From NCBI RefSeq assembly GCF_003334315.1, contig NZ_QOWR01000046.1: a stretch of DNA of 38,030 bases; one strand, given 5' to 3'. Position numbers and translations under genes: made by a program. Positions 33,951 to 34,152 of this stretch are shown here, in pieces. Each line of letters begins with the position of its first letter. Positions within the stretch are counted from its first letter, which is position 1. Under the pieces are notes generated by a model. It did not search any database, was not told the DNA's origin, and saw only the letters and a program-made list of their open reading frames with translations. This DNA is from Escherichia coli (lineage in GTDB: Bacteria > Pseudomonadota > Gammaproteobacteria > Enterobacterales > Enterobacteriaceae).

Positions 33951-34152
33951 ATGCCGGATAAGGCATTTTACGCCGCATCCTGTGCCTGATGCGACGCTGG
34001 CGCGTCTTATCAGGCCTACAAATCCGAGCCGTAGGCCGGATAAGGCGTTCACGCTGCATCCGGCACCCGGAGCCTGATGCGACGCTGGCGCGTCTTATCA
34101 GGCCTACAAACCGAGCCGTAGGCCGGATAAGGCGTTTACGCCGCATCCGGCA
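33951..34152. repeat. REP/BIME cluster (about five REP units in alternating orientation) in the nrdA-nrdB intergenic spacer
   Basis: Repeated gcctgatgcgacgctggcgcgtcttatcaggcctac and gtaggccggataaggcgtt(c/t)acgc(c/t)gcatccggca units. Confidence 0.9.

Follow-up and report, generated by a model that had tools for sequence, protein, structure and literature searches.

The spacer between nrdA and nrdB in the Escherichia coli DNA analysed here (a stretch of 38,030 nucleotides, hereafter the window) is filled by the canonical BIME-2 of the E. coli K-12 nrdAB-yfaE operon. Five Y/Z2 units are co-transcribed with nrdA and nrdB and form a row of five mRNA hairpins of -12 to -21 kcal/mol. The best explanation of the locus, held with high confidence, is a BIME-2 (probably REP164) that most likely lowers the translation of NrdA by REP-induced ribosome stalling. 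The cluster is an already known and ordinary element, and already the reference example of translational down-regulation by REPs. The evidence for its identity, the alternatives at the levels of transcript, DNA and antisense RNA, and the variation of the spacer within and beyond E. coli are considered below.

Genomic context of the spacer

The genes nrdA, nrdB and yfaE lie in a minus-strand operon, on which inaA converges from the plus strand. The features that delimit the spacer and its reading frames are as follows.

34161..36446, minus strand: nrdA coding sequence, 761 aa (ORF list; RefSeq annotation of identical K-12 DNA)
34163-34161, minus strand: nrdA stop codon, UGA
34152..34160, minus strand: 9-nt gap UAUUGAGAU between the nrdA stop and the base at which pairing of the first REP hairpin begins, in the local fold of the sense RNA
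33928..34158, minus strand: spurious 77-codon in-frame extension of nrdB from a TTG at 34158 (REP sequence translated, not a gene)
33935..33938, minus strand: nrdB Shine-Dalgarno sequence AGGA, unpaired in the predicted folds
32797..33927, minus strand: nrdB coding sequence, 376 aa (MAYTTFSQ...), ATG at 33927
32543..32797, minus-strand operon nrdAB-yfaE: yfaE, downstream of nrdB

The spacer itself extends from 33928 to 34160 (233 bp). Over 401 bp around the spacer, the sequence matches K-12 derivatives (KLY, XL1-Blue, O16:H48) at 100% identity, and RefSeq places nrdA and nrdB on either side in their records; the element is the same DNA as the K-12 nrdA-nrdB REP element of the Liang, Rudd & Deutscher 2015 model, with no difference from it. 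The 9 nt that follow the nrdA stop are kept in other BIME alleles, and the block ACAGGAC of the nrdB Shine-Dalgarno region is kept in most Enterobacteriaceae spacers.

Translation through the repeats generates two open reading frames that are best disregarded. The initial annotation regarded the N-terminal extension of the nrdB frame as spurious, and rightly so, as its 77 codons consist of REP sequence. The resulting ORF (32797..34158, 453 aa, in frame with nrdB) was rejected as a long NrdB isoform: the extension is repeat sequence with a TTG start, the RefSeq protein has 376 aa, and the extension is missing or different in other alleles. On the plus strand, a 93-aa ORF with an ATG start (33989..34270) begins within the BIME and runs antisense into the 3' end of nrdA; it is almost certainly an artefact of translated REP sequence as well.

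Organisation of the five palindromic units

Five palindromic units (PU1 to PU5) were placed in the spacer and are listed in the order in which they occur in the mRNA, with the linkers between them.

34118..34151, minus strand: PU5, Y, 34/34 to the consensus, hairpin -21.3 kcal/mol, first in the mRNA
34108..34117: tail-to-tail linker, 10 nt, between CTAC and GTAG
34072..34107, plus strand: PU4, Z2, 36/36 to the consensus, hairpin -20.5 kcal/mol in the mRNA
34065..34071: head-to-head linker, 7 nt
34031..34064, minus strand: PU3, Y, 32/34 to the consensus, hairpin -16.8 kcal/mol
34020..34030: tail-to-tail linker, 11 nt
33984..34019, plus strand: PU2, Z2, 36/36, identical to PU4, hairpin -20.5 kcal/mol
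33949..33983, minus strand: PU1, degenerate Y, hairpin -11.8 kcal/mol, last in the mRNA

The Y units lie on the minus strand and the Z2 units on the plus strand in strict alternation, so that the array reads Y, Z2 (inverted), Y, Z2 (inverted) and degenerate Y in the mRNA; linkers measure 10-11 nt where units meet tail to tail and 1-7 nt where they meet head to head. The last unit has decayed, with a 1-nt insertion in the loop, the 5' arm CAGGATG in place of GCCGGATG, and ATTA in place of the CTAC tail; about 11 nt separate its end from the nrdB Shine-Dalgarno sequence downstream. A repeat search recovered two direct repeats of 48 and 45 nt, reflecting a Y-Z2 pair that recurs with 93-94% identity, in addition to short-range inverted repeats in the spacer.

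The units were identified by a gap-free scan with palindromic-unit consensus strings for Y, Z1 and Z2, and 100 shuffled 38-kb windows served as the control. The Rfam naRNA4 match corroborates these consensus strings. Four full matches were obtained in the spacer and five in the whole window, against 0.03 per shuffled window, while a degenerate-pattern scan gave three matches against 0.11 expected. A chance origin of the units is excluded, because these counts far exceed those of the shuffled windows. Folding of the sense RNA over the complete spacer gives -120 kcal/mol, with z = -6.5 relative to dinucleotide shuffles.

The REP/BIME cluster that the initial annotation had read from the sequence was thus recovered by both the consensus scan and the folds. 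Its count of about five units proved to be exactly five if the degenerate PU1 is included, the alternating orientation was reproduced by alignment (Z2 on plus, Y on minus), and the statement that the 233-bp spacer is almost filled corresponds to 203/233 bp covered by the units at 33949-34151, within 2 nt of the boundaries first proposed (33951-34152).

Classification as BIME-2

Ton-Hoang et al. (PMC3333891) describe BIME-2 as z2 and y REPs in inverse orientation with short linkers between them, and the individual REP unit as bearing a stem mismatch and the tetranucleotide GTAG. Each of these traits was found in the spacer. The unit types comprise two exact Z2, one exact Y, one Y matching at 32/34 positions and one degenerate Y, and neighbouring units are inversely oriented throughout. 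The GTAG/CTAC feet appear as GGCCTAC or GTAGGCC flanking four of the five units (the tail of PU1 having been lost), and an internal mismatch is present in every one of the five hairpins. Furthermore, the units stand in tandem with a period of 87-88 bp and linkers of 1-11 nt, and the long L linker with its IHF site that marks a BIME-1 is absent from the array. The sequence is also dispersed, extragenic and variable in copy number, with a median of 34 matching places per genome across 5,426 complete E. coli genomes. The cluster is a BIME-2, because its exact or near-exact units, their alternation, tails, mismatches and short linkers fit the definition in PMC3333891.

In EcoCyc numbering the element is probably REP164, a name assigned by position: in a published table, REP163 is placed in the yfaL-ubiG interval and REP165 in that of yfaE-inaA, and these two flank nrdA-nrdB. 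A single REP was also observed at 32495-32530, where the convergent genes yfaE and inaA leave 53 bp between them; it is Z2-like (29/36) with a GTAGGCC foot, corresponds to REP165 of that table, and probably supplies a shared 3'-end hairpin for both transcripts.

Probable ribosome stalling at the nrdA stop codon

Translational down-regulation of NrdA is most likely the mechanism by which the element acts. It is the best supported one because it has been published for the nrdAB transcript itself and because the gap from stop codon to hairpin is 9 nt. In the local fold, the first REP hairpin begins at 34151, which is 9 nt past the nrdA UGA and inside the 15-nt limit. That limit comes from the RepRanger paper, which cites Liang, Rudd & Deutscher (2015) for the observation that a REP at most 15 nt from a stop codon causes ribosomes to stall, so that the gene upstream is translated less, with nrdAB as the reported case (PMC12306157).

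Applied to this spacer, the published mechanism would run as follows. A ribosome arriving at the nrdA stop would have to unwind the first REP hairpin, which would lie within the stretch of mRNA that the ribosome covers. It would then stall, the mRNA would be cut and tmRNA would rescue the ribosome, with less NrdA made per transcript as the expected outcome; RNA helicases and UV stress would relieve this brake. In the original work in Molecular Cell, nrdAB reportedly served Liang, Rudd and Deutscher as the model transcript, with stalling leading to mRNA cleavage and trans-translation. The effect is said to be partly reversed by overexpression of RNA helicases and fully overcome after UV stress. 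These details of stalling come from one laboratory. Moreover, the global MFE fold of the spacer pairs distant units with each other, so the hairpin met by the ribosome is a prediction of the local fold.

The initial annotation was sound on the identity, number and orientation of the units and on the ORF artefact. Its functional statement was generic, and omitted the mechanism published for nrdAB.

A useful comparison is provided by the malE-malF spacer, where Newbury et al. are said to have reported in 1987 that intercistronic REPs stabilise the upstream mRNA against 3' exonucleases. Both loci carry REP hairpins between two cistrons of one operon, and in both the balance of output between the two genes is expected to change. 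The published effect at nrdAB nevertheless differs from that of malE-malF, being less upstream protein through ribosome stalling and not more through mRNA stabilisation.

Since 31% of E. coli genomes lack a BIME in this spacer and others carry three units, the element is dispensable and its dose is not fixed, which counts against this explanation.

Possible regulation at the level of the transcript

An RNA-level role was the reading proposed in the initial annotation. The array would act mainly as a partial Rho-dependent attenuator before nrdB and, at the same time, would stabilise nrdA mRNA by blocking 3' exonucleases, so that the ratio of the two products would be set at the transcript level. 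Such a role is compatible with the translational mechanism, and we regard it as possible at low confidence.

The most informative relative is the REP325/naRNA4 array between yjdM and yjdN, a BIME-2 with 12 hairpins built from the same Y/Z2 units and likewise located between two co-transcribed genes. REP325 does act in this manner in yjdMN, where deletion of the array brings the yjdM/yjdN ratio down from about 35 to about 1 and sensitivity to bicyclomycin is partial (2026 preprint). The nrdA-nrdB spacer resembles it in carrying a BIME-2 array between two genes of an operon that are transcribed in the same direction (here from the minus strand). It differs in having five units, in being transcribed in the opposite orientation, and in having an essential downstream gene; the difference in orientation is reflected in Rfam, where the naRNA4 family (RF02564) passes its threshold on the antisense strand only. 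In addition, the Rho dependence of REP325 was seen only with the full 12-hairpin array and not with fragments of 2-4 hairpins, to which the five of the present array may be compared.

Beyond REP325, upstream-biased expression is reported genome-wide for tandem gene pairs that contain REPs (literature), and the nrdA-nrdB spacers of 12 other genera carry a hairpin followed by a U-tract that resembles an intrinsic terminator. Here, however, a terminator scan of the minus strand over 33928-34160 returned no hairpin with a U-tract, the 3' neighbours of the REP hairpins being CUAC or linker sequence. A promoter scan of the same strand and interval returned no internal sigma-70 promoter for nrdB. Strong polarity is unlikely, given that nrdB is essential aerobically, and a text search of the literature and two supplements retrieved no 3'-end (Term-seq), deletion or protein-ratio data for nrdA or nrdB.

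The terminator and stabiliser roles have been shown for REP325, and for the nrdAB array they are drawn by analogy with it and with other REPs. On that basis, the hairpins would probably slow 3'-to-5' exonucleases and so protect nrdA mRNA, and some Rho-dependent attenuation before nrdB may occur. The absence of the BIME from 31% of complete E. coli genomes weakens the notion that the nrdA:nrdB ratio is set by the cluster. Stalling at the nrdA stop remains the preferred explanation, and these transcript-level effects could accompany it.

Allelic variation within E. coli

The cluster is a repeat of the mobile type, and its unit number drifts between strains. Spacer alleles were compared across 5,426 complete E. 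coli genomes by sampling representatives down the match list and aligning them, and at least eight were found.

241 and 226 bp: five units, with minor insertions or deletions (226 bp in O157:H7)
233 bp: five units, as in the window
189 bp: four units, of different REP types
145 and 142 bp: three units, shorter by one 88-bp Y-Z2 pair
88 bp: no REP (for example, E. coli SCU-106)
46 bp: rare minimal spacer (E. coli BS-04)

A BIME-type spacer is present in 3,708/5,426 of these genomes and the 88-bp spacer free of BIME in 1,685-1,692/5,426 (31%). The 88-bp allele carries CCCCTCTCCCCTTGCGGGAGAGGGTTAGGGTGAGGGG, which a blastn search placed at a median of 15 sites per genome and at up to 28. A megablast search with a 256-bp query had made this element appear to be unique sequence, a reading that was overturned by the more sensitive blastn, which identified it as a dispersed repeat. 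This repeat looks like BoxC, and the copy number agrees. For BoxC, about 20-32 copies are given for E. coli (literature).

The boxC-like repeat thus occupies, in 31% of E. coli genomes, the same nrdA-nrdB slot as the BIME, and it too forms a GC-rich hairpin; its sequence (CCCCTCTCCCC...GGGAGAGGGTTAGGGTGAGGGG) is unrelated to REP, and its core hairpin starts 29 nt past the nrdA stop, outside the 15-nt limit. The 3' flank of the 88-bp spacer, TAAAACCACAGGACAC, matches the spacer of Pseudocitrobacter, in which the same repeat is doubled. The 46-bp spacer of E. coli BS-04, the shortest E. coli allele seen, holds a boxC-like remnant with a weak hairpin (-9.7 kcal/mol).

Strains are accordingly predicted to differ in the REP layer of NrdA control. 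The natural alleles with five, three or no REP units provide a test set for the weight of REPs in the NrdA:NrdB balance, for the dominant mechanism among the three considered, and for selection on structure. As the element already exemplifies REP down-regulation of an essential enzyme of dNTP supply, its confirmation here adds nothing new; what is mildly new is the series of E. coli alleles, together with a hairpin that is conserved in position and not in sequence across genera.

Spacers in other genera

The comparison was extended to one genome each of 80 species with close NrdB relatives, and the spacer was delimited in 78; the exceptions were Pantoea wallisii and Enterobacteriaceae bacterium 89, the latter having too little upstream sequence. 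Pantoea wallisii shows an apparent gap of 1,171 bp between nrdA and nrdB, which an insertion or another gene order may explain. At the other extreme, the spacers of Photorhabdus, Xenorhabdus and Providencia measure 12-17 nt and contain no structure, and E. albertii has a 240-bp BIME-2 spacer with the same flanks as in E. coli.

A hairpin of -12 kcal/mol or stronger was found in all 69 Enterobacterales spacers of at least 30 nt, against 40.8 expected from dinucleotide shuffles, and it starts at most 15 nt from the nrdA stop in 62 of the 69 (20.3 expected); the median MFE z-score is -3.1. These figures are to be read with the relatedness of the species in mind, with short spacers forcing hairpins close to the stop, and with shuffles, not other intra-operon spacers, as the sole background. 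With these limits, they suggest that structure after the nrdA stop is favoured in Enterobacterales.

The sequences that supply the hairpins differ between lineages. A heuristic sort, whose classes overlap, assigned 12 spacers to a class in which a U-tract follows the hairpin, as in an intrinsic terminator (Kosakonia, Buttiauxella, Siccibacter and others). Another 15 carry REPs particular to their genus, with GTAG/CTAC feet (Citrobacter, Klebsiella, Enterobacter, Raoultella and others), 5 are boxC-like by pattern (clear double copies in Pseudocitrobacter and Phytobacter, and a doubtful match in Buttiauxella), and 39 have other hairpins. In Kosakonia, Buttiauxella and their relatives, the spacers measure 51-59 nt and are made up of a perfect GC-rich hairpin, which starts 1-5 nt past the nrdA stop, and a U-tract after it; this terminator-like hairpin sits within an operon with an essential downstream gene.

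One reading of this pattern is that the position after the nrdA stop is a conserved regulatory slot across Enterobacterales, selected for a stable RNA hairpin whichever element supplies it. The slot would have been refilled repeatedly by unrelated elements, among them BIME-2 in E. coli and E. albertii, REPs confined to single genera, boxC-like repeats and hairpins that resemble terminators; within E. coli alone, its occupants are five or three REP units, the 88-bp boxC-like spacer and the 46-bp minimal spacer. We put this forward tentatively, and consider it rather doubtful. If the slot does matter, heritable differences between strains would be expected in NrdA:NrdB stoichiometry and in the stress response of ribonucleotide reductase.

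Alternatively, the intergenic position may simply be a permissive landing site for a selfish or near-neutral repeat, the copy number of which is changed by recombination or by TnpA-REP, with any effect on nrdAB being incidental and unselected. The eight or more E. coli alleles (241, 233, 226, 189, 145, 142, 88 and 46 bp), the large BIME-free fraction and the decay of PU1 all favour such a history. Variation of BIME copy number between strains is moreover general, and a REP-specific transposase is known (PMC3333891). This account is nevertheless unlikely: a measurable effect on NrdA translation is reported for the nrdAB element in PMC12306157, and the excess of strong hairpins close to the stop in Enterobacterales hints at a favoured structure, whatever its origin.

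The element could also act as DNA, either as a binding and cleavage site of DNA gyrase or as a topological insulator in a highly transcribed operon, near its 3' half. Precedent is found in PMC3333891, where BIME-2 arrays are reported as gyrase targets and REPs as topological insulators. This precedent concerns the class and not nrdA-nrdB in particular, and the genomes without the element (31%) have no obvious replacement gyrase site, which makes a DNA-level function improbable. The translational effect on NrdA is thus retained as the preferred explanation of the cluster.

The antisense strand

The sole Rfam match above threshold in the 38-kb window falls within the spacer, at 34034-34104 on the plus strand: RF02564 (naRNA4) scores 76.4 bits there against a gathering threshold of 59.5, and 34-41.4 bits, below threshold, on the mRNA strand. 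Automatic pipelines could therefore wrongly annotate an sRNA gene at this position. Taken at face value, the match would denote a naRNA4-type nucleoid-associated sRNA gene antisense to nrdAB, and the antisense yoaM transcript, which starts 174 nt upstream of the yoaM ATG, does head into the BIME on the plus strand. The Rfam family, however, was built from one Y-Z2 unit of REP325, and any BIME-2 unit scores well against it; in addition, REP325/naRNA4 gave no nucleoid compaction and formed no stable ternary complex with HU (2026 preprint). An sRNA gene is hence very improbable indeed, and the match was rejected as one, being repeat similarity on the strand antisense to nrdAB to a family whose nucleoid role has been contradicted. 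For annotation, the spacer is best recorded as a repeat and not as coding sequence, with the 453-aa nrdB ORF and the 93-aa plus-strand ORF treated as artefacts and the naRNA4 match kept out of the list of sRNA genes.

The small antisense ORF was located by mapping the MG1655 annotation on the window.

33926..33961, plus strand: yoaM (b4779), antisense small ORF, 11 aa

Its ATG overlaps that of nrdB by 2 nt, and its last two sense codons and TAA stop (GCC GGA TAA) lie in PU1. The start site reported for it corresponds to about 33752 on the plus strand of the window (Weaver et al. preprint), and a transcript from there would enter the BIME in the orientation that matches the Rfam naRNA4 family. 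Where the spacer is the 88-bp allele, yoaM must have a different 3' part and stop.
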